Positions 27,638 through 48,344 of a stretch of 64,000 nucleotides of DNA are shown one piece after another. Within the stretch, counting starts at the first letter, position 1, and each line of letters starts with the position of its first letter. Source of the stretch: a virus. Location: the IMG/VR virus record IMGVR_UViG_3300008267_007212; one strand, written 5' to 3'. A model generated the notes under the pieces. That model was not told the DNA's origin and made no database searches. It saw only the letters and a program-made list of their open reading frames with translations. The position numbers and the translations under genes are program-made.

Positions 27638-29299
27638 TCAGTATTTAGCGTCATAATACTGTCTTAGCCAAGCCCACTCATAACTGAGCATTAGTTTGTC
27701 ATACTCGCCGTTTACGGTGTCGTAGTACTCTATGGCATCTTGGGCTCCAAGAATACTCCAGTTACCAAACTGACCATTGCCCACTGCCAGCCACTTCTTA
27801 AGTCTGAACTCAGTTTCAATATTAGGTTGTGTAATACTGAAATATTTTAACTTAACAACTTCTCGGAACGCTGTTCTCCAGGTAGTCCAAGCATCTTGGT
27901 CATAATGGGCGGTGCCACTTAAAATGGGCACTACTTCATGAGCTTTACTTAAAGTAAAATCTAATCCACTTTCTATTGTTTCTAGTACCAAACGTTTATT
28001 GTAAGCAATCATTGCCTGATGTCCGTAGATCAATCCATTTACTGGATTCTTGGCATGAAAAATATAATGTTTGGGTTCCTGGAAGTAATCAGGTTGCCAA
28101 GACCAATCAAAATTAACGTCAACTTCTAATTTAGCAAACACTGCAAAAAACCACGGTGTATCACTACGTTCGGCCGCGGCTTTGTATGCTGCCATACGAC
28201 CATTTACATTTTGAACACGTTCGATTGTATTACTGAACTTTAGTGCAGGAAATCCAGAGTCTTCCTGGTCCAAAACTTTACACAAATGATTATACCAACG
28301 CTCTGCGTTTGGCTCACCATTACTGATATAGACTATGTCTAAACAGTCTTCTGTGTGTACAGATTCGCCCCTTTTCCCGACGTTTATGTAAGGATAATCG
28401 TAGATTTGTGTGCGTAAATGTGCTTTAATATCTCGTGGTACTACACATATACCGTTGCTTTCTATAAAACTCTCTACAGCCCTGTCTTTTTCAGTCCATA
28501 GGCAAATTTCACTGTTAAGTAAGATACCGGGACTATTTAAAAATGCTGCATAAGGAAATTTGAAATCATAATTACGAACTTCGTCTACTAGATTGTCGTG
28601 GTCATAGTAAACTTTCGGGCAGGCGTATCTATGTACTGTTTGATCTTGACAATAATCGATAACGTTAAACCAATCCAATAACTCCAAATCAACCATTTGT
28701 TTTTTAAATGATTCTACATGGATGTAAAAAGTATCTCCGCGCTTTTGATTACCGCTAGGGAAACAATGAATCATTTCTTCTTGCCACTGAGCAGGATGCC
28801 AAGTAAAATCAAAATCTCGATAATCACAGACACTGCTAATCACCCACACATATTCTGTAGTGGCCAAATTTACTATACGTTTCAGTACGTTTAAATGGTC
28901 CGATACATATCTAGTAGATTTAATATCTGGATATTGTAGTTTAAGAGCAGCAAGATGTGCCTTACTCTCGGGATTCATAAAATCCATGTAGAATATATCA
29001 GTGGACGTTACTCTTTTAATTTCAATATCATCACGCCAATGCCACTGATGTTCTTTGGTGCCTGTTGGAACTAAGTATGTGCCGCCATTTTTTTGCCATT
29101 GACTGGCCCAAACATGTGTATGCTCTGCTTCGTAACTGATAGGCCGCCAATAAAAGTCAAAATCTCTATAGTTATTGTGCCCGTCTATGTACCAAAAATA
29201 TGCTGTACGGCAAAGTGAATCAGCTTCTTCCAGACTAGATGCTGGTTGTTCAAAGTCAAACAAACCAGGCTTGGGTCCTTTGTAGAATACGTCAAACAT
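27638..29299 (-). CDS. multi-repeat GT-A-like (glycosyltransferase-related) protein
   Basis: Repeated DFxWxP units; the last unit is paralogous to 45086..46012 (AAYKAAA..SDT; WRTAFRE). Confidence 0.6.
   Translation of the reverse strand: MFDVFYKGPKPGLFDFEQPASSLEEADSLCRTAYFWYIDGHNNYRDFDFYWRPISYEAEHTHVWASQWQKNGGTYLVPTGTKEHQWHWRDDIEIKRVTSTDIFYMDFMNPESKAHLAALKLQYPDIKSTRYVSDHLNVLKRIVNLATTEYVWVISSVCDYRDFDFTWHPAQWQEEMIHCFPSGNQKRGDTFYIHVESFKKQMVDLELLDWFNVIDYCQDQTVHRYACPKVYYDHDNLVDEVRNYDFKFPYAAFLNSPGILLNSEICLWTEKDRAVESFIESNGICVVPRDIKAHLRTQIYDYPYINVGKRGESVHTEDCLDIVYISNGEPNAERWYNHLCKVLDQEDSGFPALKFSNTIERVQNVNGRMAAYKAAAERSDTPWFFAVFAKLEVDVNFDWSWQPDYFQEPKHYIFHAKNPVNGLIYGHQAMIAYNKRLVLETIESGLDFTLSKAHEVVPILSGTAHYDQDAWTTWRTAFREVVKLKYFSITQPNIETEFRLKKWLAVGNGQFGNWSILGAQDAIEYYDTVNGEYDKLMLSYEWAWLRQYYDAKY
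27642..27649 (-). promoter_or_regulatory. late promoter motif GCTAAATA, near-leaderless
   Basis: 4 nt upstream of ATG 27637; no SD. Confidence 0.45.
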
Positions 29300-29726
29300 C
29301 GATTTGTTCTACTGAAACTTTACATTTGTTTAAAAATTCAACGCCAGAAGTATCACGATAAGCTTGACCAAAATAAACTTTTTTTATTCCGCTTTGATAA
29401 ATCAGTTTAGAACATTCTATGCACGGTGCATGAGTAATAAACATTGTTGCTCCATCCCCGCTTTCACTACTTCGTGCTAATTTGCTGATGGCGTTCGATT
29501 CTGCGTGGATCACTTCGGGTTTTGTTTTTAATTCGTAGTCGCCTGTTTTATCCCAAACTTTGTTTTCACAGTTGTTATCCCATCCTGCAGGCATGCCGTT
29601 GTAGCCAATGCTGATAATTCTATCATCTTTAACTACAATTGCACCCACATGCAGTCGACGAGCATGGCTGAGTTCGGCAAATGTTTTTGCAGTCTGCATA
29701 TATGCTTGTATTAATTTTTGTTTCAT
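29292..29726 (-). CDS. dCMP deaminase
   Basis: VGAIVV, GYNG, HAESNA, PCIEC. Confidence 0.9.
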   Translation of the reverse strand: MKQKLIQAYMQTAKTFAELSHARRLHVGAIVVKDDRIISIGYNGMPAGWDNNCENKVWDKTGDYELKTKPEVIHAESNAISKLARSSESGDGATMFITHAPCIECSKLIYQSGIKKVYFGQAYRDTSGVEFLNKCKVSVEQIDV

Positions 29727-30400
29727 TTTCTTAGCCAACTTACTTCATCCCAATTATTACCTGTTGGATTAAATTTTGCCACTACTTGAGAATAAAGTTC
29801 GATATCTGCAGCCAAATAGTTTAGTACTTCTTGGTTAGGATTTTCTTCAAACATTTCTTTTATTTTTAATTCCAATGCTTTTTTCTTTTTACTTGATTCA
29901 TTTGTGTTATTGACATTTCTAAACATGTGTATGTTATATTTTTTTAATAACATGTCTGTTAATTGAATCACTTGGTCAGGAGAAATAATGTCTATGGGTA
30001 TCCAGTCAATTTGATTGCAGTATTTTCCTAAATTTTCTGAGATTGACACGGAATGAAAATCAAGTAACTTAGAATTTAACACTAACTGTTGTAAATTAGA
30101 ATCTATATAAAATTGATTTGCTAGACTGTTTTCATATAACCACTGTGTTATAGCCTTGTATCTTCTAGTCAATGGATCTGATATAAAAGAAAATACACAC
30201 CCTTCCCAATTAATTTCATTAAATGTAGTCGGCGGCCATCGATGATTAACTTTAAAAATTTCTCTGAAAAAAGTAGATGCGTTTTTCAACGTAACTATGT
30301 ACGTTAAAACATCACAAGAGTACGTCTCTACGTAAGATCCAGCCCTGGGTTCAAAAGAATTGAACTTGTTTATATCGACAATATAAGGAGTTATGTCCAT
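29723..30400 (-). CDS. sulfotransferase-like protein (Sulfotransfer_2-like)
   Basis: KNAST (5'-PSB-like), SDPLTRRY (3'-PB-like), YLAADIELY; next to the APS kinase. Confidence 0.55.
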   Translation of the reverse strand: MDITPYIVDINKFNSFEPRAGSYVETYSCDVLTYIVTLKNASTFFREIFKVNHRWPPTTFNEINWEGCVFSFISDPLTRRYKAITQWLYENSLANQFYIDSNLQQLVLNSKLLDFHSVSISENLGKYCNQIDWIPIDIISPDQVIQLTDMLLKKYNIHMFRNVNNTNESSKKKKALELKIKEMFEENPNQEVLNYLAADIELYSQVVAKFNPTGNNWDEVSWLRK

Positions 30401-30401: not shown

Positions 30402-30617
30402 TTAATCTATAGATATTTGTTTACCCCATTTAATCAAATTCCATACTCTTTCGTGTAGAAAGTATAACAGGGTATTAACAGTTATTTGCAATAACGCAAT
30501 ACTACCAGCAATCGAAAAATCACCTGTAATAACGTATGATATTATAAACGTAGCTCCGCTACCAGTCAATCTCCAGCTAATCGTTTTAATAAAACTTCGC
30601 TGGATACTGTCTGTCAT
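30402..30617 (-). CDS. DUF2061-like small membrane protein
   Basis: RSFIKTISWR...YFLHERVW..I.WG. Confidence 0.8.
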   Translation of the reverse strand: MTDSIQRSFIKTISWRLTGSGATFIISYVITGDFSIAGSIALLQITVNTLLYFLHERVWNLIKWGKQISID

Positions 30618-31408
30618 TTTAAACCTAGTTCTTTTCTAATTTTAGTAGCACTAATATCAGTAATCGACTCATCGAATGTTTCTTCGCCCGCTGAATATCC
30701 CACGCCACGACCCCAACCTATATGCACAATATTTGGAACTACTTGTATGTCGTATTGCCCTTGGTATAGTGGATCTAAGTCTCGACGAATAAATGATTTT
30801 ACTTTTTCTACTTCAAAAGGGTTAGACCCTTGCCATCCCTGTACATCACGAACTTGAATCATAACTTGGCCTGTGCGCTGTAGCAGTCTTTCGAATAGTG
30901 CGCGGTGACCATCATGCCATGGTTGCCAGCGACCCAACATCTGTACTGTTTCTTTTTTCCAATCAAAAGTAGGACGGCGACGATCATCGACGATATGCTC
31001 AGCAATAAAATCTGCCCACTTGGCAGCGTTCTGTTCGGTAATCCGGAAATCATAAACTTCGGGCTCCACAAACATTTTATTAGTGTCGGCGTAACGACCT
31101 TCACGTATAGTGTCCATCCATACAGTCCAATCTGCTTTAAAATTGTTACGCATTTCGACTAAGGGTGCAACAAAGTCGCACAGTGCATAATCTGTATTAC
31201 AAGTAGCAGACAACTCGGACATACGCTTGCTTTGCCTAATACGCCCTGCTTCGCTGAAATCCCAATCATTGAATTGTTTACGTATTTCATCTGCGTTAAA
31301 CCAAGTTACAGTTTTGCCATTTGCTTCTAGCAACTTTTTTAATTCTGTTGCCAAATAAGTTTTTCCTGCACCGGGCAGGCCCATTATTAAAATCTTTGAT
31401 GCACTCAT
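30614..31408 (-). CDS. cysC: adenylyl-sulfate kinase-like domain fused to an HxGH nucleotidyltransferase domain
   Basis: GLPGAGKT, NADEIR, DFSEAGRIRQ; C-terminal GRWQPWHDGH, ISATKIR. Confidence 0.72.
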   Translation of the reverse strand: MSASKILIMGLPGAGKTYLATELKKLLEANGKTVTWFNADEIRKQFNDWDFSEAGRIRQSKRMSELSATCNTDYALCDFVAPLVEMRNNFKADWTVWMDTIREGRYADTNKMFVEPEVYDFRITEQNAAKWADFIAEHIVDDRRRPTFDWKKETVQMLGRWQPWHDGHRALFERLLQRTGQVMIQVRDVQGWQGSNPFEVEKVKSFIRRDLDPLYQGQYDIQVVPNIVHIGWGRGVGYSAGEETFDESITDISATKIRKELGLK

Positions 31409-32025
31409 TATGTTTCCTTTCTTAAGTTTTCAAATAATTCTATATCTTTTCTAAAATAGTCTAAAATATGTGTGTTGTTTTTATTGTCTGTGAATCTTTG
31501 TTTTATTTCTCTTGTTAAAGATTGGCTATCAACCCCTGCTATATTTTTAAATCCTCAATCAAAATTTGTCCATCTAAGTATTTTTTGTGATTGAAGAAAT
31601 TTGTCTGTGTTTTCTATAGTTTTATCATAATTGTCATAATCACAGATAATCCATTGAATTTTTGTAATCTTTTCACCTAACATTTCATGATAACTTGCGC
31701 TATGATTGTCGATATACGGAAGATTTATAATATAATCTCGGAATTCTGCATTTACTCTGAATTCTGTGTGTAAATTGTTACGAATCAACCAATGAGCAAT
31801 TCCTTTATGCCTACGTTCAATCGGATCGGCTAAGTGGCTAAAAATTAATTTATTTTCCCAATCTATATCTTTATATTCTATTGGCTCCCATTTCATACCA
31901 TTTATAAAATTGTTATAAAATAAAGAAGAAACACATCGATAGTTCCGTAAATAAATTAAATGAGCAGTAGTGCAAGCTTGCCCCAAATTTGAATTTGTTA
32001 CAACTATTTCAGCATTAAAGGTCAC
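31408..32025 (-). pseudogene. sulfotransferase-like gene interrupted by an in-frame TGA at 31555-31557
   Basis: Frame continues 48 codons past the TGA to a TAATG overlap with cysC; the tail YFRKDIELF matches the paralogue's YLAADIELY. Confidence 0.65.
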
Positions 32026-33503
32026 GACAATACTTTTACTCCGTATAATTGTTCAAATCTGTCAGCGTCGACCCGGTCATTGACCATAGGTTCACCCCTA
32101 ATGTTTAGACTAGTATTTAATAGCATAGGACAATCTGTGACAATAAACCATTTTTCTAAGAGTTCTCTGATTCCCGATCCGTCCTTGGGCACAGTCTGAA
32201 CACGACTAGTTCCATCATGATGCACAATAGCAGGAAATAAGTCAGGACTACGGCAACAAGCGACTGACTGCATATAAGGACTATGATCGAAGCCAGGGGG
32301 CATATCAAAATACTCGCTAGCGTATTCTGCCAGAATAACTGGCGCAAAAGGTCTGAACTTTTGTCTACGTTTGATTTCATTTACTCTATCCTTAATATCA
32401 TTTCCTCTGGGGTCAGCCAATAAACTACGATTGCCTAATGCTCGCGGGCCGAATTCTGCGCGGCCACTTGCCACACCAACAATACGATCACGCAAAAGAG
32501 TATCCAGGGCGTCATTAACAGGGTAAGAGCCAGGAATAAGATGACCCAGATAAGCATCATTCCAATTAATGCGGCCGCCATAAACAAGAGCAGCGGCACC
32601 AAGACTAGACCCTGCATCCCCGGGATTAGGCATAATCCAAATATTTTCAAAGTATCCTCCTACACAGCTATTAATACTACAGTTAAGAGCAACACCGCCC
32701 ATGTATACCAGATTAGAACTCCAGTTAAAATCTTTTGCTCTACGCATGATATTTAACACTAAATCTTGGGTCAGATCTTGTGCGCTGGCTGCAATGTCCA
32801 TATCTCCTACGTAGGACAAATACTTTTGTTCTATGCCCGTATGAAGATTTTCTTTAAATTTAATTTCCCATTCATTGTGCAAAAATTTGGACTTAAATAA
32901 ATCAGTGAACGCTGGCACACCATATGCTGCCATACCCATAAGAATATATTCTTCTTCATTGGGTTTAAGACCAACACGTTCTGTCATTGCACTGTAAAAC
33001 AGTCCTATACTATGCGGATATTTTTGACGCCATAATCTTTTATAAACGGCTTTTCCTTGAACGTATTCTGCTGCCCAAATGCTTATTGTATCCCATTCAC
33101 CAATGGCATCGATTACAACCACCGTGGCTTTGTCAAATGGGCTTGTCTGAAACCCTGCAGCCGCGTGGCATAGATGATGATTGTGCGTTGAAATCGGTCC
33201 TGGGAAATTAGAAAATTCTTTGCCTATTTGCCTATTAAGAATCTGTCGAACAGTTAATTTATTCCATTCAACACCTTGACCGCTGTACAGTTGTCTTAAC
33301 TGTTTATTCCATGGTCGTTCATAGTAAGCAACATGGTCAATTCTATAATTAATTATTTCTTTGATTATACCAGGACTTAAATTTGGATCGTTTTTAATTT
33401 TACTATAGCGTTCACTGTGACCCGCATATAATATATTTCCATGATAGTCAATGACACTTAATGCAGCATCATGGAATCCTGCAGATATTCCTAAAATATT
33501 CAT
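32022..33503 (-). CDS. O-carbamoyltransferase (NodU/CmcH/TobZ family)
   Basis: GFHDAA, ERYSKIK, HHLCHAA, DAIGE, MGMAAYG, GGVALNC, EFGPRALGNRS, FRPFAP, LLNTSLN. Confidence 0.95.
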   Translation of the reverse strand: MNILGISAGFHDAALSVIDYHGNILYAGHSERYSKIKNDPNLSPGIIKEIINYRIDHVAYYERPWNKQLRQLYSGQGVEWNKLTVRQILNRQIGKEFSNFPGPISTHNHHLCHAAAGFQTSPFDKATVVVIDAIGEWDTISIWAAEYVQGKAVYKRLWRQKYPHSIGLFYSAMTERVGLKPNEEEYILMGMAAYGVPAFTDLFKSKFLHNEWEIKFKENLHTGIEQKYLSYVGDMDIAASAQDLTQDLVLNIMRRAKDFNWSSNLVYMGGVALNCSINSCVGGYFENIWIMPNPGDAGSSLGAAALVYGGRINWNDAYLGHLIPGSYPVNDALDTLLRDRIVGVASGRAEFGPRALGNRSLLADPRGNDIKDRVNEIKRRQKFRPFAPVILAEYASEYFDMPPGFDHSPYMQSVACCRSPDLFPAIVHHDGTSRVQTVPKDGSGIRELLEKWFIVTDCPMLLNTSLNIRGEPMVNDRVDADRFEQLYGVKVLS

Positions 33504-33601
33504 TTATAGATAAAAGGATCTTGCTTTCGCAATTCTTTGAGTTTGCGACGATAAGTGATTTCTAATTTAATTCTGTAGTATAAATTTTTAAGCCATTTCA
33601 T
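33500..33601 (-). CDS. 33-aa basic microprotein ending DPFIYK, coupled to the carbamoyltransferase
   Basis: MKWLKNLYYRIKLEITYRRKLKELRKQDPFIYK*; ATGA overlap; absent from the ORF track. Confidence 0.7.
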   Translation of the reverse strand: MKWLKNLYYRIKLEITYRRKLKELRKQDPFIYK

Positions 33602-33605
33602 GATA

Positions 33606-34706
33606 TTATTTATTGAGTAAACTACTGCTGTAATCGTAACCAGGTTTTAATCTTTCGATTTGTTGATCATAGTAGTCTTTGTCCGACCAAGTATAAGAAT
33701 AGACAGAGCGTAAAATGTTTCCCGACCCATCATCGCATTGAATTGAATATATGTCTAAATAACTCGATAGTATGGGCCAAACTTCGCTGTATTTGATCGT
33801 ACCAAAACTTCTTTGTAAGTCAACTTGCCCCACTGAATGATATCCGAAATTATATTGATTATCTTCGGGATCGAATCCATTTCGTTCAAGCCATGATTTA
33901 AACCCAGACATTTCTTTGGTGTACCAAGGGTGAGGCCCATTATAACATACGTCCTGTGCCCATTCGATATCAAACTCGCCGCTGTAGTAACGTAGATGTG
34001 TAATAGCATCACAGGTTGTCTTGTCGACGTCAACTCCTTTTTCATCTCTATAAACTTCAAACAGTGTTTTGCCAATCTGTGTCCAATGTAAGTAGACTTC
34101 CCCGAATTTTCTATCATACCTTGATTCTTTAAAATTAGTTTTATATGTTGACGGAAATTCGTATCGCGAGGCATTTAGAAATGTAGTGATTTGACTAGGC
34201 CTAACCCACTCAGGCAATGTTGCTTGTTTACGTTGACTCAGCATTAAACTCTCTGCTTCGTGACATAGATTATTCAATTGTCTGATAGCGAATTTAGTTG
34301 TATAATCTGCTTGTTTATAATAATCACTGAGTCCCCACACAGTTCCTTGCAAAATTTCAAAATGGTTATGCAATTTGTTCATTAACTCTTGATTAGGATT
34401 TAATGTTTCAGGATTTCGTAGAGTAAAAGGGTAAAAGTTTTCTTCTATTTTATACTCGCCTTGGAAGAAATCATTTATTACATTCTTGACCCAGAATAGT
34501 TCTCTACAAATATATTCTAAATCTCTTTGACTGTCGGGAAATCCCAAGAAGCAAAAGTTTTTTTCCAGATATTTGTGTTGCTGTACAATTTCTTGTAATG
34601 CCGTAAACCATCGCTGAGCCATTTCATGCTCGTAGACATTGATAATATAGTCTAATGTTTTTGTTTTATCTAACGGATTTCGTAGTGTTATTATTACTTT
34701 ATTCAA
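33606..34706 (-). CDS. hypothetical protein in the modification operon
   Basis: 366-aa ORF; LHNHFE and LNNLCHEAE His/Glu motifs. Confidence 0.8.
   Translation of the reverse strand: MNKVIITLRNPLDKTKTLDYIINVYEHEMAQRWFTALQEIVQQHKYLEKNFCFLGFPDSQRDLEYICRELFWVKNVINDFFQGEYKIEENFYPFTLRNPETLNPNQELMNKLHNHFEILQGTVWGLSDYYKQADYTTKFAIRQLNNLCHEAESLMLSQRKQATLPEWVRPSQITTFLNASRYEFPSTYKTNFKESRYDRKFGEVYLHWTQIGKTLFEVYRDEKGVDVDKTTCDAITHLRYYSGEFDIEWAQDVCYNGPHPWYTKEMSGFKSWLERNGFDPEDNQYNFGYHSVGQVDLQRSFGTIKYSEVWPILSSYLDIYSIQCDDGSGNILRSVYSYTWSDKDYYDQQIERLKPGYDYSSSLLNK
33607..33614 (-). promoter_or_regulatory. late promoter motif AATAAATA, near-leaderless
   Basis: 5 nt upstream of ATG 33601. Confidence 0.4.
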
Positions 34707-40890: not shown

Positions 40891-42022
40891 TTAAAAGATC
40901 CTTAACTTTGTCAGGAAGAGTAATGTTTTTTCTATCTTCCCATTGTTTTAAAAAGTGTAAAAATTCTGAAAATAAAGTTTTATTAAATTTGGTTGAAGAC
41001 AATATACTTAAAACAACATCAACATTCTTTATATTTTTATTATCTAACAAAGTTAATAACACAGTTTCTGCTTGTTTTTTAATCTTATCCGGAGTTGCTT
41101 CAATGCTTTGAATTCTGGGATTTTGACCATATGACAATACCCAATGAAATTTATCTTTATATTTTTCTATTCTGGGCAGTATTACAGTAGATGAGAAGTT
41201 TTCAATATCGCAGAGAGTTAAATTAGTCATCAGACTTGATATATTAATTTTGATATTTTCTTCGCTGCGTTCTAATAGATAGTCCAAATTCTTCAAAAAT
41301 AAATCATAATCAAGACCATATCTAACAAATTCTGATATTTCATCACAAGAATCTAAACTGGCGTTTATTACAATGTATTTGAATTTATGTCTATTAGATA
41401 GTAGTTTATCTATTGCTTTTTTATCGACCATTAAATTTGAAGTTACATCTAAAATTCCTTTATGGTCTATCGTATCTAAGATATTAAAAAAATTTTTATT
41501 TATTAATGGTTCACCACCTATTATTCTCAAAGTTTCAAATTTCACAGTGTTTAACAATTCTAAATTTTCATCTATTAATTGCTTATTTTTAATATCTACA
41601 CTGTAGACATGTCGATCTGTAAACAATTGATATTTTTGATTTTGTATATCTTTTTCCCATTGACTGCTAAACTTTGGATTACAATACATGCATTGCATAT
41701 TGCAAGCATTGCCAACATTAATTTCAATTACCTTAGGCGATTTATTATTTTTATATTCATTAAATGTCGATATATCAAATTTTTTTAAGAATTGAATTCT
41801 GAGACTGGTGCCGTTTGTTTTTTCAGAATTCCAACAATAAGAACAACTTGGATCTTTTACATTGTTTAATAAATTTTGTTTTTGATGATCAATGATTTCA
41901 TTGTAATCGTTGACAAATTTTTCTGGCTTTGCTTTACAGCAACCATATACATAGTTATAACTAGTATTGATGATTAGCTCATCCCATTTAGCCGGACAAA
42001 AAGTGTCAGGTAGTTGTTGCAT
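40877..42022 (-). CDS. N-terminal-twitch radical SAM protein
   Basis: CPAKW...GCC, CSYCW, CNMQCMYC, GGEP. Confidence 0.88.
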   Translation of the reverse strand: MQQLPDTFCPAKWDELIINTSYNYVYGCCKAKPEKFVNDYNEIIDHQKQNLLNNVKDPSCSYCWNSEKTNGTSLRIQFLKKFDISTFNEYKNNKSPKVIEINVGNACNMQCMYCNPKFSSQWEKDIQNQKYQLFTDRHVYSVDIKNKQLIDENLELLNTVKFETLRIIGGEPLINKNFFNILDTIDHKGILDVTSNLMVDKKAIDKLLSNRHKFKYIVINASLDSCDEISEFVRYGLDYDLFLKNLDYLLERSEENIKINISSLMTNLTLCDIENFSSTVILPRIEKYKDKFHWVLSYGQNPRIQSIEATPDKIKKQAETVLLTLLDNKNIKNVDVVLSILSSTKFNKTLFSEFLHFLKQWEDRKNITLPDKVKDLLNAKD

Positions 42023-43397
42023 AATATTTGCATTCCTTCCAAAAATCTACCATTTCTGGAAATGCCAAAATAAAGTTAGTTCCCCTGCGTCGATCATGTT
42101 CATTAAAAAACTTATAAAAATTTGCTTTTTGCATTTTAACATAATCAGGATCCAACTTGCTACCTTCTCTCATCCAATCTATCACTCTTTGTAACCGCTG
42201 GACTTCATAGTCTTTGAATCCGTGAAATGGAGTTTCGGGCTGTTCCATTTTTGTAATCATAAAGCTCCACGATGTCTCTAGCTGATCGACATAGCTTTCA
42301 GGTAATAGTTGTAAACTTTGCCATTCTGGTTTACGTAGAATTGGAGTATCAAACCAGACACGCTGATATGTTTTGCTGTGTATTTGCCTAAGTCCCAGTA
42401 TGCAACCTAATAGATTTTGAAGTCCCATTACATTTAAATTATTCATAGTAATTATAAATGTTAGACTACTACGATTCGGAACTTCATATAAAAATCTGTT
42501 AACGTTATCCCAAAATCTTTCAAAATTTAATCCATGTCTGATATATTCAGCCTGCATAAAAGTAGCATCTATACTAACATACTGCATGAAATGCTCGATT
42601 TTTTTATTCTCATTGTCGCACAGTCTTTTTACATAATCCAGATACTTGTCAAATAATGCAGGCTCAACACTGAAATTAGAAGTTACGTTTAAATGTAGCT
42701 TGGGACTAGGATTTTCTAATACGTAATCAAAAACACGATACGTATTTTTATCCATTAGTGGTTCTCCACCAGTCATCCTAAAATGTTCTAGTTCAGGATA
42801 TAATTTTGGCCACCAAGACCAAAAGGCATCGACATAAGAATTATCTTCTCTTGCAGGGATAACTTTTCTATCTCCCGTAAAATGACTGGGATCATTGTGC
42901 GGAGGATTAGTAGGAAAAGCTCCGCTACGTTCTACGTCACTGGCCCAACTGCTAGAGTATTGGGGACTACAATAACTACAAGCCAGATTGCAAGCATTAT
43001 TAAAATTAACTTCTACATAGGAAGGAAGTACATCTTCATCCCCAGTAGAATTAGCTATTGTTTCAAAATCTTTTGCAGCCCATGGTTCCCCACTACGATA
43101 ATGTCGATCGCTTAAATTGCCCAAATCTTCTTGTGTCCAACAATAACTACATTCTTGTGGGCGCTCATTATGGAGCATAATCTTACGCTGCTCTTTTTTG
43201 TAAGGTGTATTATGTAATGCGCTGGGATTATTTTTTACTAGCGTTGAGTCAATTTTATGTAAAGGTGGATGATAACAACTGTTATTGAGACCCGTAGGCA
43301 AATGCAAGCTTACTTGTTTCCACTTTGCTAAACAAAGAGCAGGACCTAATTTAGATTTTGCTTCTTCAGCCGAGTTTAAAAAAACACTTTTAGACAT
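42006..43397 (-). CDS. N-terminal-twitch radical SAM protein (CxAKW...SCY subtype)
   Basis: CLAKW...SCYHP, CSYCW, CNLACSYC, GGEP. Confidence 0.88.
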   Translation of the reverse strand: MSKSVFLNSAEEAKSKLGPALCLAKWKQVSLHLPTGLNNSCYHPPLHKIDSTLVKNNPSALHNTPYKKEQRKIMLHNERPQECSYCWTQEDLGNLSDRHYRSGEPWAAKDFETIANSTGDEDVLPSYVEVNFNNACNLACSYCSPQYSSSWASDVERSGAFPTNPPHNDPSHFTGDRKVIPAREDNSYVDAFWSWWPKLYPELEHFRMTGGEPLMDKNTYRVFDYVLENPSPKLHLNVTSNFSVEPALFDKYLDYVKRLCDNENKKIEHFMQYVSIDATFMQAEYIRHGLNFERFWDNVNRFLYEVPNRSSLTFIITMNNLNVMGLQNLLGCILGLRQIHSKTYQRVWFDTPILRKPEWQSLQLLPESYVDQLETSWSFMITKMEQPETPFHGFKDYEVQRLQRVIDWMREGSKLDPDYVKMQKANFYKFFNEHDRRRGTNFILAFPEMVDFWKECKYYATTT

Positions 43398-44448
43398 TTA
43401 ATAATAACTTCTTTGAAAATTTGTGAAAGGGTAAAGAATCAAATAAATTTTCTTTTCTAATTTTATCTAGAAATAAAACATGTGAAATCGTATGGATTAT
43501 CAATGTTTTATTGTAATTATTTTGTATTCTTGATTCTATTGCGTCGTACATTGATTGTGTAATATAAGGCCTAATACCAGCCAAACACTCAATAGCTAAC
43601 GTTTGTAATTCATCTGGGATTGCATTTAAGTTTAAAAAGTCTGGACCATTTAATAAATTTAATTCAATTTGATAATCTTTAAAGTATGAAAGTAACTTTG
43701 GTAAATGCCAAAAATTCAATATACTAACAGTGGGAGAAATTTTTATACGTAAATTTGTAAGTTGTAACGATGCTAAAAGTTGTAGATTTTTGTTAACATC
43801 TTCCCAAGATGCACCAGATCTGATATATTCAAATTCTTTTTCTATTGCATCTATACTGCATGTTACATTGATTGATTTGAATTCTTTCCAAATATCAGTA
43901 ATTGACGCATCTTTATATTTTAGGGTTGTCAAATTTGTATTATACATTAATGCTATATTTTTTGCTTGACCAGATTCTATATATTTTTTTAAAATTGCCC
44001 AATGATCCCCATTTATAAATGGCTCTCCTCCAGTAAAATATGCATGTCGGACCGATGGAACCGTTATTATATCATAATAATCGTCCAAACTTTGATGTGT
44101 GATCGGTAATCCGAGCTCAGCAGCCCATTGGCTACTCGCATCTGCATTACAAGACCTGCATTTTAAATTACATAGGTTGGTATTTCTTATATCTAAGAAC
44201 TGTAGTTCATTATTATCTATTGCATTTTTATTAAAAAAAGTTCTATAACTTGGTATCTTTTCCTGCTCTGCATCGATACATGTTTTGCATTCTTGAGGTG
44301 GTACACCAGTTTGTAGATCTTCAAACAAGTTACGATTACCAATCTCTGTCATTGGTTTTCTATAGTTTGAATCTATTAGACAACACGGAGAAACTCCGTT
44401 TGAAAAAATTGTCAGACTATTTTTATATGCTGCACATTTCCAAGTCAT
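43390..44448 (-). CDS. N-terminal-twitch radical SAM protein
   Basis: WKC...PCC, CKTC, CNLKCRSC, GGEP. Confidence 0.88.
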   Translation of the reverse strand: MTWKCAAYKNSLTIFSNGVSPCCLIDSNYRKPMTEIGNRNLFEDLQTGVPPQECKTCIDAEQEKIPSYRTFFNKNAIDNNELQFLDIRNTNLCNLKCRSCNADASSQWAAELGLPITHQSLDDYYDIITVPSVRHAYFTGGEPFINGDHWAILKKYIESGQAKNIALMYNTNLTTLKYKDASITDIWKEFKSINVTCSIDAIEKEFEYIRSGASWEDVNKNLQLLASLQLTNLRIKISPTVSILNFWHLPKLLSYFKDYQIELNLLNGPDFLNLNAIPDELQTLAIECLAGIRPYITQSMYDAIESRIQNNYNKTLIIHTISHVLFLDKIRKENLFDSLPFHKFSKKLLLNV

Positions 44449-45092
44449 AGTTGTTGTATCAAAATTAAAGCAAACTTTTGCTGTTCGTTAGCAGTGGGAT
44501 GCCGAGTGGGTGTCATGATATCGTTAAATGAAACTGATAATTTTGTGTTGAACTCATGCCCAAACACAGAAAAATCGTAGTATTTTATGTGTTGCGAATC
44601 CATCCACAATCTAAACAAATTTATCAACATGCCTGCTGTATTAGTTTGATCAATGAAGTTGTTTTCTATCATGATCTTGTGTAACTTTGGCAGTGTTGAT
44701 AGATGTTGTTGATTGTGTTTGTCTGTGATAAATTTTACATTGTTTTTGTGTTCTACAAATACATCTGGATCGCTGTGATCACCTAGCAAAACGTAACTGG
44801 GGAGGATTTGCAACATAGAATCTTGTGTGTAAAAGCCTGCTCGGGCTGGATTGGTCCACCTTACAATTACTGTGTCAATATCCTGTTGATGGTGGGAAAG
44901 ATAATGATACCCGACCTCCACTGTTCTCTGTACAGAGCTTCCAGGTTCAGCCAAGTTTAAATAGTCTAGTTCTAGGTGATCAGCCACATAGTGACCAAAT
45001 GCATGTTCTGTGTTTTTTGGGTCTTTAAACACGCTTGCAGTGCCTATGCCGTGACAAAAACTATCTCCAAGAACCAGTAACTTTTTTACCAC
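44445..45092 (-). CDS. SGNH/GDSL-like hydrolase or acyltransferase
   Basis: LGDSFCHG, NLAEPGSS, TRHP. Confidence 0.7.
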   Translation of the reverse strand: MVKKLLVLGDSFCHGIGTASVFKDPKNTEHAFGHYVADHLELDYLNLAEPGSSVQRTVEVGYHYLSHHQQDIDTVIVRWTNPARAGFYTQDSMLQILPSYVLLGDHSDPDVFVEHKNNVKFITDKHNQQHLSTLPKLHKIMIENNFIDQTNTAGMLINLFRLWMDSQHIKYYDFSVFGHEFNTKLSVSFNDIMTPTRHPTANEQQKFALILIQQL

Positions 45093-46012
45093 CCTTCAAC
45101 TCGTCGAATAACATCTAACTCAGTTATTGTTGTTCCTATATTACGATGCACTGCTTTATAATGATGCTTGAAAAATGCGCTTTGATCTGCTGTCATATCA
45201 ACAATAGGTAGCCCTAGTCGTGTACGTAACGTTTGACCGATATTCTCACAAGCAGGCTCTGCATCTTTACTAAAGCTGTTCCATAAATATGCAAGATGAT
45301 CAAAATCTTGTACTTGTTTATAATCCCACTCTCTTAACATAGTCATGTACGTACCTAGGCGAGCACCGTATATGGCCCACCATCCATTTTCCACGTCTCG
45401 GCCGACACTTTGCCAAATACATAAATGATCATAGTTTCGAGCATGAACTTTTTGTTCAAACTCTTGCAGGCTGGGTTTCTTTCCTCGATCTAAACACATC
45501 TTAACACCTTCGCGGAATCCTGCTCGCCATGCTTGAAAAGGTGTTGCATTGGGAAATGTAGTACTATAGCAATCATGCATGGGAATATACTTAGGGTCAA
45601 AACAAAACTCTATCACGGTTTCGTCTCTGCCGTCAGTGGCTTCATGTGTTCGCATATTGTTAACGAACTCTTTGGTCCAGCAACTTATTCCGCCGTTGCC
45701 GTACATTAACCCATTGATATGATTGCGAGCCTTCCATCTAAACACACAATCTTGATTATTGTCGTCTAATTTAAGTTGGAGATTAAAAAACTCAGCGTCA
45801 GGTATATTGTCTCCGTCTATTAGCACGAACCTATCAGTATCGCTGGCCGCGGCGGCTGCTTTATGTGCAGCATCACTGCCTTTAACTCCATCCACACGTT
45901 TAGCCCACGGAATTAAATTTTGAATCTTAATCCAAAATTCTTCTTTTTTTGGTTCGTCGTAGGTTAAAAATATACAATCGAGATCTGCAATATCAACGAT
46001 TTTTGTAGTCAT
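45086..46012 (-). CDS. GT-A fold glycosyltransferase-like protein
   Basis: DCIFLTYDEP, AAHKAAA, VLIDGDN (DxD), YGNGG, AWRAGFREG. Confidence 0.7.
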   Translation of the reverse strand: MTTKIVDIADLDCIFLTYDEPKKEEFWIKIQNLIPWAKRVDGVKGSDAAHKAAAAASDTDRFVLIDGDNIPDAEFFNLQLKLDDNNQDCVFRWKARNHINGLMYGNGGISCWTKEFVNNMRTHEATDGRDETVIEFCFDPKYIPMHDCYSTTFPNATPFQAWRAGFREGVKMCLDRGKKPSLQEFEQKVHARNYDHLCIWQSVGRDVENGWWAIYGARLGTYMTMLREWDYKQVQDFDHLAYLWNSFSKDAEPACENIGQTLRTRLGLPIVDMTADQSAFFKHHYKAVHRNIGTTITELDVIRRVEGW

Positions 46013-46418
46013 AGTGTTCTGTGTCTTTAAAAGTTTCGCCATCTTCCAAAATTATGCCAGATAAATTTTTTACTGTTTTAAAACCAGTCTGACTTTTTTC
46101 AAGTTGAGGAGTTTGATTTAAGTTATCTTTTTTGATCGAAACTTTATCGTTTTGTATTCGATACTTGTAGCATTCCATATACACGGATTTATAAGTATTC
46201 TCATCTACTACAATATAATCACCAGAAAGGCCGTACATTTCTGCATCTTTTACTGTAGGGGATGTAGCCGTGATGTTTCCACTTTCATCGTAGTATATTC
46301 GATATTCGTATTCAATTAGTGCAGGTTTATCTATTAGCCCTAACTCGTCTAATTGTCGAATTATTTCTTCTAAGGTAGTATCTTCATTGACTGTTATGGT
46401 AGGTTCGTTCGTACTCAT
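45993..46418 (-). CDS. hypothetical protein
   Basis: ORF within the operon. Confidence 0.7.
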   Translation of the reverse strand: MSTNEPTITVNEDTTLEEIIRQLDELGLIDKPALIEYEYRIYYDESGNITATSPTVKDAEMYGLSGDYIVVDENTYKSVYMECYKYRIQNDKVSIKKDNLNQTPQLEKSQTGFKTVKNLSGIILEDGETFKDTEHYDYKNR

Positions 46419-47235
46419 TTAATAATTCCTCTGTTACATATGATTTATCATAATAATGCACTGGGTTGTATTGATTTAGATTGTGAATTTTAATCATGTG
46501 GTTATCTCGGTCATGCATTACTATGTCTTGCCAAGACTGATCGGTATTACCCCAACCATTGATACCAGGTTTCAAATGTATAAAATTAATGAAATCCATG
46601 GTAGGTATAGTGCATAGTTCTACTCCTATCGTCTTTGCTGTTACTGCATACAGTGCATCGGTGCTGGGTATATCTTCTCGACAATTTTTTAATATATTCT
46701 CTTTGAGATAATCCCAATTTCTTAAAATTCTTTGTGCTGTTAAAAAGAAATCACTGGCTGTTTTACTATATCTAAAATACATCAAACCATTATATATGTC
46801 CGGAAGATCATTATCATCAAAAAATTTTCTATAAAGTCTTGATGTAGATAATTCTTGTCTATAAGTTCTGCAGCCAGTGCTCAATACAACATCTCGCAGT
46901 CTAAAAGCATTCCACCAATGGTCAATATTCCGTGTAAATAATAAGTCACTTTCTAATTTAATAGTTTCTTTAAAAGGACTCAGTGAAAAAACTTGATATT
47001 CATTGGATAGCTTCCATGTACTACCTGTGTCGTTTTCGTCATAGGGAAGTTCGATAATGTGATCAAAAACTTTTGTGTGTTTATCTGTGATTTGATCGAT
47101 AGTATTTTTATCACAGATCACTGCATACTTAGCACCCGGGTGTAGGCTTTTTACATTCATTGCTTGGCAATACGCAAGTCTAAGATAATCTATCTTATCT
47201 GTATTCTGTGCAAATGTAAGAAAACCTTTACTCAT
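46384..47235 (-). CDS. GT-A (GT8-like) glycosyltransferase-like protein
   Basis: SPFKETIKLESDLLF, YNGLMYF, STD, HLK. Confidence 0.65.
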   Translation of the reverse strand: MSKGFLTFAQNTDKIDYLRLAYCQAMNVKSLHPGAKYAVICDKNTIDQITDKHTKVFDHIIELPYDENDTGSTWKLSNEYQVFSLSPFKETIKLESDLLFTRNIDHWWNAFRLRDVVLSTGCRTYRQELSTSRLYRKFFDDNDLPDIYNGLMYFRYSKTASDFFLTAQRILRNWDYLKENILKNCREDIPSTDALYAVTAKTIGVELCTIPTMDFINFIHLKPGINGWGNTDQSWQDIVMHDRDNHMIKIHNLNQYNPVHYYDKSYVTEELLNEYERTYHNSQ

Positions 47236-48049
47236 TACAAACAGCCTTTACAAAGCTATCAAATTGTTCTGACAATAGATAGTTCTTATCCATGATATGC
47301 AAATTTTGTCTGCTGATTACATCTGCCCGGTGTTTGTACTTAACAGTTAAAAATTTATTTTTGAGATCGATAGACTCAATGTTGTCTTCTATGGTCAACA
47401 TTAGCCAAGGTATACTTTGCTCAGGAGTCAGTGTATGGCCATTTAAAATGATATTGGCCATACTGAATGCAAAATCGTTTCTATAATTTGTTTCTCTAAC
47501 AGCAAACAAACTTCTATAATATCCATAGTTTCGTTGTATACGGCCCACTAAATCGAAAAACATTTTAGCTCTTGTAGTTTTTCGAAATAGTACTACAGTA
47601 GCCCAAACCATTGGCAAACTCGCAGGCCCCATTTCATCTGTGTTAAGTCCCAGTGGGGTCTGCATGTTATACATTAATCTATAGTCAAAGGGTTGGTCGA
47701 GTAACTTTATCAAGCTATTGTTGAGCATCAAATAATCAGTGTCTATTAAAATGGTTTCATCATATGGACTTAAATCGAATGCTCGATACCTATCAAAATT
47801 TTTCCATTCATATAATTGCTGATCTTTGGAAAATCTGACGTTGCCAGTTTTACTATCAACTCGAATTATTTGATCATAATCAAATTTTAATTCGGCATCT
47901 ATGTCTGTGACTATCGTTACAGGAAGGTTTGTATTTTTTTTGATTAATTTACTTGTTTGGTCTGCTATATCGGTATATTTGACTTTTCGACTGTTAAAAG
48001 CAAATACCAACACACCTTTAGATTTTTCTAATTCGCTTGAGTTCTTCAT
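47228..48049 (-). CDS. GT-A (GT8-like) glycosyltransferase-like protein
   Basis: SPYDETILIDTDY (DxD), WATVVLF, RNDFAFS, HIMDK; paralogue of the neighbouring gene. Confidence 0.68.
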   Translation of the reverse strand: MKNSSELEKSKGVLVFAFNSRKVKYTDIADQTSKLIKKNTNLPVTIVTDIDAELKFDYDQIIRVDSKTGNVRFSKDQQLYEWKNFDRYRAFDLSPYDETILIDTDYLMLNNSLIKLLDQPFDYRLMYNMQTPLGLNTDEMGPASLPMVWATVVLFRKTTRAKMFFDLVGRIQRNYGYYRSLFAVRETNYRNDFAFSMANIILNGHTLTPEQSIPWLMLTIEDNIESIDLKNKFLTVKYKHRADVISRQNLHIMDKNYLLSEQFDSFVKAVCNE

Positions 48050-48344
48050 GTTGTTGGTGCCACTCGTTCATTGCTGAATGATAGTGTTGTTGTGCTTTAA
48101 TTAAAAATTCTTGTTTATCTATTTCTATAGGATTTTGATAAACATCCTCAAGATAAAATCTGTCAATGGGCCAACTTGCAGCAAATGCCAATAGTTCTGG
48201 AGTTATTTTGAACAATCCGTTTTCATAAGGCATGTGTAAGTCTGTTAAAATACGTTCCCTTAGCAATCGTTTGTTAATTTGATAATCTGTAGCCAATTTT
48301 ATCTGATTGACTATTTCTTCGACAGTGCTGTTCATATTGGACAT
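48018..48344 (-). CDS. hypothetical protein, first gene of the modification operon
   Basis: ORF downstream of the promoter/hairpin. Confidence 0.7.
   Translation of the reverse strand: MSNMNSTVEEIVNQIKLATDYQINKRLLRERILTDLHMPYENGLFKITPELLAFAASWPIDRFYLEDVYQNPIEIDKQEFLIKAQQHYHSAMNEWHQQHEELKRIRKI

Follow-up and report, generated by a model that had tools for sequence, protein, structure and literature searches.

A block of about 21 kb on the minus strand of the 64,000-nucleotide stretch of uncultured jumbo-phage DNA analyzed here (IMG/VR record IMGVR_UViG_3300008267_007212; hereafter, the window) runs from position 48344 to 27638 and contains 23 co-oriented genes, comprising 22 ORFs of 71–553 aa and one of 33 aa. 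Our reading of this block, which we put forward tentatively, is that g04 through g25 are a single operon whose soluble products carry out glycan assembly and chemical editing in the cytoplasm. An earlier note on the same DNA had delimited the block at these coordinates, which hold, and had taken its product to be a heavily decorated glycan. Judged from sequence, glycan building and tailoring remains the best reading and is partly supported, because g08 is predicted to adopt a GT-A fold and its DGD motif is invariant, g19 has the solved relatives NovN, GdmN, and TobZ, and the end of the operon has syntenic neighbours encoding an NDP-sugar dehydratase and an aminotransferase; a glycan substrate for the radical SAM enzymes is further suggested by the O-polysaccharide contexts of bacterial relatives (loci L111, L114, and L113). 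The sulfation and acylation proposed in the note rest on labels that our searches did not support. The pathway would be cytoplasmic because a hydropathy scan found hydrophobic segments in one operon product only, the DUF2061 protein g22, and no transporter or flippase gene was found in the operon by domain and hydropathy scans.

Most genes of the block abut or overlap, and sizeable intergenic gaps occur only at 31409–31554 and 33504–33605, the second of which holds the 33-aa gene. The operon is separated by 58 nt from two late fibre-like genes on the same strand, g02 (550 aa) and the Ser/Thr/Gly-rich g03 (312 aa), at 48403–51035; g02 weakly matches a tail-fibre PHROG (E 2e-5). A promoter scan of the g03/g04 gap identified a promoter and upstream terminator (48350–48393, minus strand), in which TTGACA, an 18-nt spacer, and TATAAT score 12/12 and are overlapped by a perfect 15-bp hairpin followed by a T-run. 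Among 56 distinct upstream sequences of relatives, a sigma-70 match scoring 10/12 or better precedes g04 in 34 and the hairpin with T-run in 22; such sigma-70 matches number 0–5 per gene before the other operon genes, where the hairpin is never seen. Conversely, a T4-type late motif, TATAAATA, lies at 51035–51028, 22 nt 5′ of the g02 start, and occurs before g02 in 10 of 30 relatives and before g04–g19 in none. The operon is thus predicted to be a transcription unit separate from the fibre genes and, by analogy with T4, of early or middle class given its own sigma-70-type promoter. That the two sets of genes share no transcript, with promoter and terminator between them, is a prediction new to this work. 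The earlier note placed the block correctly, immediately after the tail fibre genes, but the linkage would be one of adjacency rather than co-expression. An early-type promoter would be no less expected if the operon acted on the host or on nucleotides than if it decorated the virion.

Assignment of g08 (45086–46042; minus strand, like all operon genes below) to the GT-A fold is partly supported. All top Foldseek matches of its AlphaFold model (mean pLDDT 84) are GT-A glycosyltransferases (B4GalT, E 6e-4), and D76-G-D78 is invariant among g08 and its relatives, although VIA-align scores are middling, with Z up to 8.4 (BcsA, ThuS/SunS, and GpgS). Gene g25 (27638–29299), previously called a multi-repeat GT-A, does begin with two repeats of ~63 aa each but continues into a single g08-like GT-A domain, recognized by paralogy with g08; in the more distant loci L092–L096 it follows g19. 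The paralogues g05 (47228–48049) and g06 (46384–47235) are related to each other at E 4e-9, and their GT8-like label draws on a joint profile whose only PDB match, glycogenin, is weak (E 0.028); g05 has no match in Pfam, and g06 matches phrog_1903, a PHROG without assigned function. Interleaved with the radical SAM genes is g13 (39850–40890), one of a multi-copy family varying in copy number and position among loci. It had been labelled GT-B-like, but matched nothing in Pfam, NCBIfam, or PDB, and its nearest named Atlas clusters are Glyco_transf_10 (score 0.80), so that a GT10-like identity is only a lead.

Several further genes are small or sparsely annotated. The gene list of the earlier note omitted g04 (48018–48344; 108 aa), the first operon gene, with relatives in ~66 loci, and g07 (45993–46418; 141 aa), which is poorly conserved (relatives 25–83% identical); neither has a Pfam or PHROG match. 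Accessory gene g09 (44445–45092), with weak relatives in only 6 loci, had been read as an SGNH protein, a label that failed to gain support, as its N-terminal GDSF motif is recognized by eye only and no sequence match was found in Pfam, NCBIfam, or PDB. The same applies to the sulfotransferase-like label of the paralogues g20 (31555–32025) and g23 (29723–30400), for which Pfam and PDB searches gave no sulfotransferase match; g20 seems C-terminally truncated relative to its copy in locus L014. The proposed APS kinase fusion, by contrast, was recovered in g21 (30614–31408), which joins an APS-kinase-family P-loop domain (Pfam APS_kinase, 42.9 bits against a cut-off of 21.1; PDB 2yvu, an APS kinase, 3.6e-6; PHROG 10255, “kinase”) to an HxGH nucleotidyltransferase-like tail that is NMNAT-like in NCBIfam. 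Pfam likewise confirmed DUF2061 in the small membrane protein g22 (30402–30617; E 7e-22). Counting against the pathway reading as a whole are the GT8, GT10, SGNH, and sulfotransferase labels, which are weak or without support, and the middling structural match scores of g08 and g18 (Z no higher than 8.4).

The seven radical SAM genes counted in the note all belong to NF033640 (N_Twi_rSAM, NCBIfam), scoring 199–406 bits against a cut-off of 170 bits. Five are core orthologues, each at least 40% identical in 80–89 of 89 loci: g11 (42006–43397; 325.6 bits; 86 of 89 loci), g14 (38520–39869; 288.4 bits), g15 (37186–38523; 405.6 bits), g16 (35984–37189; 333.6 bits), and g17 (34699–35991; 294.5 bits). 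The accessory paralogues g10 (43390–44448; 237.8 bits; also Pfam Radical_SAM) and g12 (40877–42022; 199.3 bits) reach 40% identity or more in only 4 and 10 loci, respectively. In g15, SPASM (residues 45–109) precedes Radical_SAM (154–318) in Pfam, and in g16 SPASM is also N-terminal to the radical SAM core. Searches of IMG/VR with g14 returned 551 matching stretches, the best 80 of which are 69–95% identical, and g15 has at least 5894 homologues at E values up to 1e-5. The paralogues are only 19–31% identical to one another, a divergence that, together with the conservation of each, suggests non-redundant roles. To our knowledge, no N_Twi_rSAM enzyme has a known reaction.

The core gene order recurs in ~80 IMG/VR jumbo-phage contigs, in line with the synteny survey across large phages that had been suggested as a check, and the core enzymes are 60–95% identical among many environmental phages. 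A reduced version of the operon is carried by the cultured Ralstonia phage RsoM2USA, in which RsoM2USA_354 is 35% identical to g04, RsoM2USA_349 is 35% identical to g11, and the match of g14 at RsoM2USA_202 is 52% identical. In every case, RsoM2USA included, the operon adjoins fibre-like genes. The strong conservation of the core across ~80 loci from many samples and this constant adjacency both point to a conserved, probably phage-made acceptor. In bacteria, contigs L111 and L114 carry four tandem N_Twi_rSAM genes after RmlC, RmlD, and Wzm, the first being fused to Wzt (ABC_tran and Wzt_C), followed by TylF, another methyltransferase, and a WbsX glycosyltransferase; L113 carries an N_Twi_rSAM-methyltransferase fusion between Wzt/TylF and WbsX/Wzm/Wzt. 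This occurrence of N_Twi_rSAM genes within ABC-transporter O-polysaccharide clusters is reported here for the first time and is not universal, since three of the five bacterial contexts examined are orphan genes amid housekeeping genes. The earlier statement that no characterized phage system has this enzyme set appears correct; uncharacterized cassettes of radical SAM and GT8 genes lie beside fibre genes in pelagimyophages (PMC7029224).

A possible but unlikely alternative is that the same chemistry acts on a host envelope glycan (LPS core/O-chain or capsule), remodelled at the cytoplasmic face early after infection, a role already proposed for cassettes of glycosyltransferase and radical SAM genes from the host recognition clusters of pelagimyophages (PMC7029224) and for the polysaccharide clusters of jumbo cyanophages (PMC7824862). 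A sigma-70 promoter of early type in place of a late motif would suit this role, as would the bacterial family members that work alongside Wzm and Wzt in pathways for Und-PP-linked O-polysaccharide. GT8, moreover, is the family of LPS-core transferases. Host O-antigens, however, are hypervariable, to which core enzymes so similar across many phages are a poor fit; domain and hydropathy scans of the operon found no priming transferase, flippase, Wzm/Wzt, or Gtr-type membrane component, and the adjacency to fibre genes persists even in the distant RsoM2USA.

Downstream of the radical SAM genes lie g18 (33606–34706) and a 33-aa basic microprotein ending in DPFIYK (33500–33601), the latter already recognized in the note. 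The AlphaFold model of g18 (mean pLDDT 90) has a helical bundle inserted into a cyclophilin-like barrel; it has no structural match in Foldseek, and VIA-align gives cyclophilins with middling scores (Z 7–8). Its homologues form 667 representative clusters, and one protein (P0344) fuses a g18-like domain to N_Twi_rSAM. This fusion, newly observed here, suggests that g18 probably works together with the radical SAM enzymes, and the fusion's position among Laminin_G_3 proteins again hints at a phage-made acceptor. The near-invariant microprotein is conserved in 71 loci with 13 invariant alignment columns, and its stop overlaps the g19 start (ATGA).

These features bear on whether the radical SAM substrate is a peptide or protein instead of a sugar, either the 33-aa peptide, giving a RiPP-like or cofactor-like product for later glycosylation and carbamoylation, or the fibre proteins, which would be cross-linked or epimerized. 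Characterized SPASM and twitch radical SAM enzymes are for the most part peptide maturases, and the secondary NCBIfam matches of the operon's radical SAM genes are to sactipeptide, ranthipeptide, mycofactocin, and PqqE maturases. The peptide lies inside the operon and its aromatic C-terminus (YRKKLKELRKRDPFIYK) is near-invariant, g08 has structural matches to the peptide S-glycosyltransferases ThuS and SunS, and the Laminin_G_3 flanks of the g18 fusion would suit a protein substrate. We nevertheless consider a peptide substrate improbable. The peptide tracks g19 rather than radical SAM genes, preceding g19 in all of 50 loci (abutting in 26) and, in L097 and L098, accompanying a g19-like gene with no detectable radical SAM neighbours; the bacterial radical SAM clusters, in turn, have no homologue of the microprotein, g18, or the carbamoyltransferase. 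Conservation spans the whole peptide with no leader-plus-core pattern, and domain searches of the operon found no RRE domain, protease, or exporter.

The O-carbamoyltransferase g19 (32022–33503), correctly named in the note, belongs to the NodU/CmcH/TobZ family, with both Pfam domains (Carbam_trans_N and Carbam_trans_C, E 1e-40 and 1e-46), PHROG 1601 (E 1e-91), and PDB matches to NovN (1.4e-51), then GdmN and TobZ. Since these closest solved relatives are natural-product enzymes, the operon could make a free diffusible small molecule (aminoglycoside-, Nod-factor-, or nucleoside-like) acting on the host or competitors, and secondary metabolites have been predicted as products of carbamoyltransferase-bearing jumbo cyanophage clusters (PMC7824862). 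The solubility of the enzymes and the lack of an obvious acceptor gene in the block agree with such a product. It is a decidedly improbable one, given that the block has no scaffold-forming enzyme (cyclitol synthase, PKS, or NRPS), exporter, or self-resistance gene, that the presence of four glycosyltransferase-like genes speaks for an acceptor-bound oligosaccharide, and that fibre adjacency and the bacterial O-polysaccharide contexts point to polymer- or protein-bound sugars.

The dCMP deaminase g24 (29292–29738; Pfam dCMP_cyt_deam_1, E 2e-24) was also rightly identified, but had been counted with the tailoring genes; it is found in closer relatives only, is better grouped with its neighbours for thymidylate synthase and DHFR than with sugar chemistry, and, though in line with the operon, probably serves nucleotide metabolism. 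The thymidylate-synthase homologue passes the NCBIfam equivalog cut-offs and has PCH and PFNIASY, placing Asn at the equivalent of E. coli position 177. The operon might instead hypermodify the phage's DNA or its nucleotides, for instance to 5-carbamoyloxymethylcytosine that may also be glycosylated, but no DNA-modification pathway known to us combines GT-A and GT8 enzymes with five to seven of the radical SAM type. Carbamoylation of 5hmC has been demonstrated for one phage carbamoyltransferase of the NodU/TobZ family, and in the same study such genes are found together with those for thymidylate-synthase homologues and dCMP deaminase (PMC8670742), families all present in the window beside an early-type promoter and nucleotide-metabolism genes; yet Asn at that thymidylate-synthase position goes with unmodified DNA, modified contigs having Asp, and carbamoyltransferases of unmodified contigs adjoin glycosyltransferases (PMC8670742), as here, making this, on the genes of the window, the least probable reading by our estimate. 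The use of the Asn residue as an argument against carbamoyl-hydroxymethylcytosine DNA is new here.

Returning to the glycan pathway, we infer its substrates, order of steps, timing, and acceptor from gene families, synteny, promoter and terminator signals, and fusions. Host RNA polymerase would transcribe g04–g25 from the operon's own sigma-70-type promoter, presumably at early or middle times. Sugars would be transferred by the GT-A-fold proteins g08 and g25 and the GT8-like g05 and g06, with substrates probably including a 4-amino-4,6-dideoxyhexose made by the products of the convergent NDP-sugar genes (24326–26391, plus strand), an SDR 4,6-dehydratase/epimerase and a DegT/PseC-like aminotransferase (Pfam and NCBIfam) that are syntenic in the six closest relatives. 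The five anciently diverged N_Twi_rSAM enzymes (g11 and g14–g17) and accessory g10 and g12 may each carry out a different radical reaction on these sugars, with g18 as dedicated partner. The TobZ/NovN-type g19, translationally coupled to the 33-aa peptide, would add an O-carbamoyl group, and attachment of a phosphate- or sulfate-linked group may fall to g21 with g22, perhaps also to g20 and g23. The acceptor would most likely be a protein made by the phage itself, the candidates being the fibre or adhesin proteins encoded next to the operon; were the host envelope the target instead, the modification would serve to block superinfection or to keep progeny from re-adsorbing to lysed cells.

Between 48344 and 27638 on the minus strand, 22 ORFs and one ORF of 33 aa, nearly all abutting or overlapping, form an operon whose genes are designated g04 to g25 in the order of transcription. 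The earlier note had counted seven radical SAM genes here (g10-g12 and g14-g17), and all seven exceed the curated, full-length cut-off of 170 bits of the NCBIfam model NF033640 (N_Twi_rSAM, "twitch domain-containing radical SAM protein"), with scores of 199-406 bits (g10, 237.8; g11, 325.6; g12, 199.3; g14, 288.4; g15, 405.6; g16, 333.6; g17, 294.5). Their matches span the full length of the model, as does that of an eighth member. The CX3CX2C motif and the GGEP motif involved in SAM binding are readable in all seven operon translations, and a Cys-rich auxiliary-cluster domain lies N-terminal to both motifs in the N_Twi_rSAM proteins of the window; in g15, g16, and g17, Pfam places SPASM ahead of Radical_SAM. 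The eighth member (246.2 bits) is encoded at 706-1878 on the plus strand, 40 kb from the operon and opposite to it in orientation. With two genes in its vicinity, a short ORF resembling DegT and one for GTP cyclohydrolase I (3613-4230 and 4232-4978), it could form a second pathway, for a sugar or a deazapurine. The total of nine radical SAM genes in 64 kb is reached with a protein of 308 aa and of another radical SAM type (8704-9630, plus strand), which falls under the NF033640 cut-off and finds its best match, a weak one, in TIGR04317 (tungsten-cofactor oxidoreductase maturase).

NF033640 is a family catalogued without an assigned reaction. In the operon it takes the form of a conserved array of five orthologous lineages (the core genes g11 and g14-g17) together with accessory copies. 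Four to seven radical SAM genes lie between g08 and g19 across loci, five being the commonest number and seven the number in the window. Identity between the paralogues is 19-31%, yet each core paralogue is at least 40% identical in 80-89 of 89 loci, with g14 reaching 69-95% among its 80 best matches, and this combination of mutual divergence with conservation across loci argues that the paralogues are old duplicates with distinct roles. At least 5894 homologues of g15 are present in public data at E-values up to 1e-5, the best 120 of which are 68-98% identical.

At the DNA level no cultured phage matched: megablast with the entire block found nothing among 50,697 phage records. Searched with g14 alone, IMG/VR returned 551 matching stretches, from which 88 loci were fetched. 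The core is syntenic in these relatives: the order g02-g03-g04-g05-g06-(g07)-g08-g11-g14-g15-g16-g17-g18-peptide-g19 is held in nearly all 88 loci, and the only variable members are g09, g10, g12, g13, g20, and g23. The same operon is carried by the peptide-bearing MAG contigs L090-L099, and those of 148-335 kb look like mis-binned phage and not bacterial contexts. The cultured Ralstonia jumbo phage RsoM2USA has a reduced module in which _354, _353, _352, _350, _349, and _348 correspond to g04, g05, g06, g08, a g11-like radical SAM gene, and a gene resembling g08 and g25; it lies downstream of a giant protein, and at a second site a g14-like radical SAM gene is found near a carbamoyltransferase. 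The giant protein is related to the 4006-aa product of g00 in the window. Elsewhere in the window, an AAA ATPase gene is paired with one for a DUF2201 metallopeptidase/VWA protein at 16822-19640 (plus strand), and this ATPase shares 47% identity with its counterparts in PA5oct-like Pseudomonas jumbo phages.

The N_Twi_rSAM family is rare in cells: proteins above the NF033640 cut-off were absent from 14 control genomes and turned up in 2 of a further 400 sampled within one phylum. Two bacterial contigs (L111 and L114) share the order RmlC, RmlD, Wzm, a Wzt-N_Twi_rSAM fusion, three N_Twi_rSAM genes, TylF, a methyltransferase, and WbsX. The fusion (L111:8579-11143, minus strand; L114:4871-7381, plus strand) joins the ABC_tran and Wzt_C domains of Wzt, the ATPase of the O-antigen ABC transporter, to N_Twi_rSAM in one frame over 836-854 aa, an architecture of which no description was found in the literature searched. 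A third contig, L113, labelled Burkholderiaceae, carries Wzt, TylF, an N_Twi_rSAM-methyltransferase fusion, WbsX, Wzm, Wzt, methyltransferases, and an epimerase. Further fusions of the family involve methyltransferase domains and other Pfam domains, and three bacterial contexts (around the homologues P0143, P0183, and P0166) are uninformative orphans. Bacterial N_Twi_rSAM genes lie in ABC-type O-polysaccharide clusters, beside RmlC/RmlD, TylF methyltransferases, and WbsX, one being fused to Wzt and another to a methyltransferase. Wzm, Wzt, TylF, and WbsX are absent from the phage operon; conversely, the bacterial clusters have no g18, peptide, or carbamoyltransferase. These contexts suggest that the family edits the sugars of a cytoplasmically assembled glycan, and they are evidence independent of the phage operon that ties it to cytoplasmic glycan tailoring.

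The conserved protein encoded by g18, downstream of the array, has a confident predicted model (pLDDT 90) for which Foldseek found no match in the PDB and an Atlas feature search returned nothing. VIA-align suggests a barrel resembling that of cyclophilins, into which a helical bundle is inserted; the Z scores of 7-8 are common for the tool and serve as a description of fold only. A profile search with g18 recovered 667 representative clusters. In one homologous protein, P0344, a g18-like domain is fused to an N_Twi_rSAM domain 36% identical to g15; a further radical SAM gene and three Laminin_G_3 proteins are encoded on the same contig. Because of this fusion, g18 is a predicted partner of radical SAM enzymes. 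A g18-like domain also forms the C-terminal half of proteins of 712-775 aa (loci L118 and L119; P0296, 770 aa), whose N-terminal ~400 aa have no match within the window; next after the gene for one of them comes an SNase-domain gene, with an FG-GAP gene two places beyond.

The assignment of g19 as an O-carbamoyltransferase holds: both Pfam domains are present (Carbam_trans_N and Carbam_trans_C, at 139.1 and 158.3 bits, with cut-offs of 24 and 27), and the solved relatives retrieved from PDB sequences are NovN (1.4e-51), followed by GdmN and TobZ. Tested as an orthologue of NodU, g19 scores 123.7 bits against an NCBIfam equivalog cut-off of 1000 bits, and it is best classed by sequence as a member of the family and not as a NodU orthologue. 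Both domains are shared with TobZ, NovN, GdmN, and NodU, and the HHxxH segment aligns with that of NovN; these four are 576-702 aa long, whereas g19 has 493 aa and is translationally coupled to an invariant peptide of 33 aa. Peptide coupling of this kind is not known for TobZ, NovN, GdmN, or NodU. The ORF for the peptide, MKWLKNLYYRIKLEITYRRKLKELRKQDPFIYK (33500-33601), is the microprotein of the earlier note and is real: it is found in 71 loci with 13 invariant columns and, in 50 of 50 loci, precedes g19, which it abuts in 26. No homologue of the peptide was found in RsoM2USA, where a weak tblastn match translates with stop codons.

The predicted model of g08 (mean pLDDT 84) has top structural matches that are all of the GT-A type, including B4GalT, cellulose and hyaluronan synthases, ThuS/SunS, GpgS, and PBCV-1 A64R, with moderate scores (Foldseek E of 6e-4; VIA-align Z up to 8.4), and residues D76-G-D78 are invariant among 30 aligned sequences. 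The gene product is modelled as a GT-A fold with a DxD motif; it had no Pfam match, and a profile built from the alignment found no match among PDB sequences. In g25, two N-terminal repeats precede a g08-like domain. The paralogous g05 and g06 have no Pfam match, and their joint profile retrieved glycogenins alone from the PDB, weakly, over positions 8-111 (best E of 0.028).

Other labels given to the operon fared unevenly. Those of an SGNH enzyme (g09), sulfotransferases (g20 and g23), and a GT-B enzyme (g13) found no support in searches of Pfam, NCBIfam, and PDB sequences. For g09, none of the three returned an SGNH/GDSL match, and block I (GDSF) is all that is visible; for the g20/g23 family, Pfam searches of eight members at E-values up to 5 returned no sulfotransferase, nor did PDB sequences searched with the family profile. 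Per-member Pfam searches of the g13 and g20/g23 families at E-values up to 5 gave only scattered chance matches, and profile searches of PDB sequences with g08, g18, g13, and g20/g23 gave nothing meaningful. The sole lead for g13 came from an Atlas search, to GT10 with a score of 0.80. Compared with its orthologue in locus L014, the product of g20 (31555-32025) lacks ~50 C-terminal residues, and a non-coding gap of 146 nt (31409-31554) comes next; g20 may be truncated in this phage. The proposed APS kinase fusion is borne out in g21, which combines an APS-kinase-family P-loop domain with an HxGH nucleotidyltransferase-like domain: APS_kinase scores 42.9 bits against a cut-off of 21.1 over profile positions 4-94 of 152, and the top PDB sequence matches are exclusively APS kinases or PAPS synthases. 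The NCBIfam equivalog and subfamily cut-offs for adenylyl-sulfate kinase are not reached (42 against 127 bits and 33.6 against 138.7 bits). The DUF2061 and dCMP deaminase families, also named earlier, were both matched, and by hydropathy the DUF2061 protein is the sole non-soluble product of the operon, all others being soluble.

Upstream of the operon, a fibre-like block is headed by g00 (51843-63863, minus strand), which encodes a protein of 4006 aa with CBM_5_12, YHYH, and FG-GAP matches; g01 follows, then g02 (550 aa), with a weak tail-fibre PHROG match, and g03 (312 aa), a Ser-, Thr-, and Gly-rich protein between g02 and g04. Within the 58 nt that separate g03 from g04 is a perfect promoter, TTGACA-18-TATAAT (48393-48364, minus strand), overlapping a 15-bp hairpin with a T-run. 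Sigma-70 matches of at least 10/12 occur within 80 nt 5′ of g04 in 34 of 56 distinct sequences from relatives, as against 0-5 for other operon genes, and a perfect hairpin with a T-run precedes g04 in 22 of 56 and no other gene. The T4-type late motif TATAAATA occurs twice in the whole 64-kb window, where shuffles predict 9.8; one copy lies 22 nt upstream of g02. Among relatives, the motif is found ahead of g02 in 10 of 30 and ahead of g04 to g19 in none. Its scarcity is consistent with selection against stray late promoters. From the pattern of promoter, hairpin, and late motif, transcription of the enzyme genes is predicted to be separate from that of the late fibre genes that they adjoin. 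"Tail-linked", as the earlier note called the operon, accordingly comes down to adjacency, and co-transcription with the fibre genes was rejected on the promoter and terminator signals between g03 and g04. By analogy with T4, the unit would belong to the early or middle class. Inside g22, ~140 nt upstream of g23, an 11/12 sigma-70-like site (TTGACT-17-TATAAT) with a small hairpin at 30541-30569 (minus strand) may drive g23 to g26 from within the operon. The last of these, g26 (26384-27637, minus strand), encodes 417 aa with a weak match to DUF5768; it comes straight after g25, shows synteny in the closest relatives, and overlaps a DegT gene tail-to-tail by 8 nt.

Virus-encoded glycosyltransferases are known to glycosylate the capsid and tail of mycobacteriophages. 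Virion glycosylation of this kind shares with the operon soluble glycosyltransferase genes near structural genes, and the capsid glycosyltransferase of PBCV-1, A64R, is itself among the structural matches of g08, but these systems have no radical SAM, carbamoyl, or kinase module. Phage clusters that modify glycans have precedents, as do radical SAM cassettes next to fibre genes: the host recognition cluster of pelagimyophages and cyanomyophages comprises tail-fibre genes, glycosyltransferases (mostly GT8), and radical SAM cassettes (PMC7029224). That cluster likewise sits in the structural region of large T4-like aquatic phages, and the window has its combination of fibre, glycosyltransferase, and radical SAM genes. 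It is, however, described as hypervariable and non-syntenic, with enzymes that were not dissected, whereas the operon core is syntenic across ~80 loci; hypervariable gene content was not found, the core order being kept in nearly all of the loci fetched. The operon further adds its own promoter, carbamoyltransferase, peptide, and g18. A T4-like genome with 12 radical SAM genes has also been reported (PMC5332604). Literature searches on jumbo-phage radical SAM with carbamoyltransferase, on N-terminal SPASM, and on radical SAM with Wzt and O-antigen found nothing relevant. Four features appear not to have been described in the literature searched: the N_Twi_rSAM array of five conserved lineages with g18, the coupling of a carbamoyltransferase to a peptide, the promoter that belongs to the operon itself, and the link to Wzt-fused bacterial homologues.

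The best-supported reading is a cytoplasmic pathway in which a glycan is assembled and is edited through carbamoylation and radical reactions; an amino-deoxy sugar would probably be supplied by the dehydratase and aminotransferase whose syntenic genes lie adjacent. A phage-made protein is a candidate acceptor, since the core is highly conserved across many environmental phages, adjoins fibre-like genes in RsoM2USA as well, and is not accompanied by membrane or export components. The host envelope is also a candidate target, in keeping with the early-type promoter, the bacterial relatives in O-polysaccharide clusters, and the role proposed for similar cassettes (PMC7029224; PMC7824862). A peptide or protein is a less likely substrate for the radical SAM enzymes. 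Examined as a candidate RiPP precursor, the 33-aa peptide is present but tracks g19, and Pfam found no RRE, protease, or exporter domains. Release of the product as a free metabolite is also less likely.

Modification of DNA is again less likely, and here the comparison is with a phage carbamoyltransferase of the same Pfam families that makes 5-carbamoyloxymethylcytosine, whose genes co-occur with thymidylate-synthase homologues and dCMP deaminase, and for which Asp instead of Asn at E. coli position 177 is diagnostic (PMC8670742). All three families occur in the window too, but its thymidylate synthase has Asn, not Asp, at the equivalent of position 177 (LGVPFNIASY, with PCH) and passes NCBIfam equivalog cut-offs, and its carbamoyltransferase, unlike that system's, sits among glycosyltransferase-like and radical SAM genes. 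With a DHFR gene next door, the Asn-type enzyme looks like ordinary dTMP synthesis within the 64-kb window, a pathway that the dCMP deaminase g24 would fit. A role for g24 in the sugar pathway was rejected, given its thymidylate synthase and DHFR neighbours and its retention only in closer relatives.

The cytoplasmic glycan-editing pathway can be extended into a joint reading that we offer tentatively and consider rather doubtful as a whole: N_Twi_rSAM proteins would be a previously unrecognised class of radical enzymes that edit glycans, with sugars that are already part of a polymer or glycoconjugate as their substrates, serving in bacteria to tailor or cap O-polysaccharide before Wzm/Wzt export, and expanded in a very abundant jumbo-phage clade into an assembly line of five to seven steps with an obligate g18 and a peptide-dependent carbamoyltransferase. 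If true, this would mean a phage-made glycoconjugate without known counterpart. The bacterial Wzt fusions and the reduced module of RsoM2USA provide two tractable systems that do not require these phages to be cultured. The operon comes from a very abundant, uncultured group of giant phages and encodes five to seven enzymes from a radical SAM family without a known reaction; if they do edit sugars, this would signify new carbohydrate radical chemistry and a new layer of phage biology, whether particles coated with glycan or remodelling of the host surface, that could shape host range and competition between phages in lakes and oceans.
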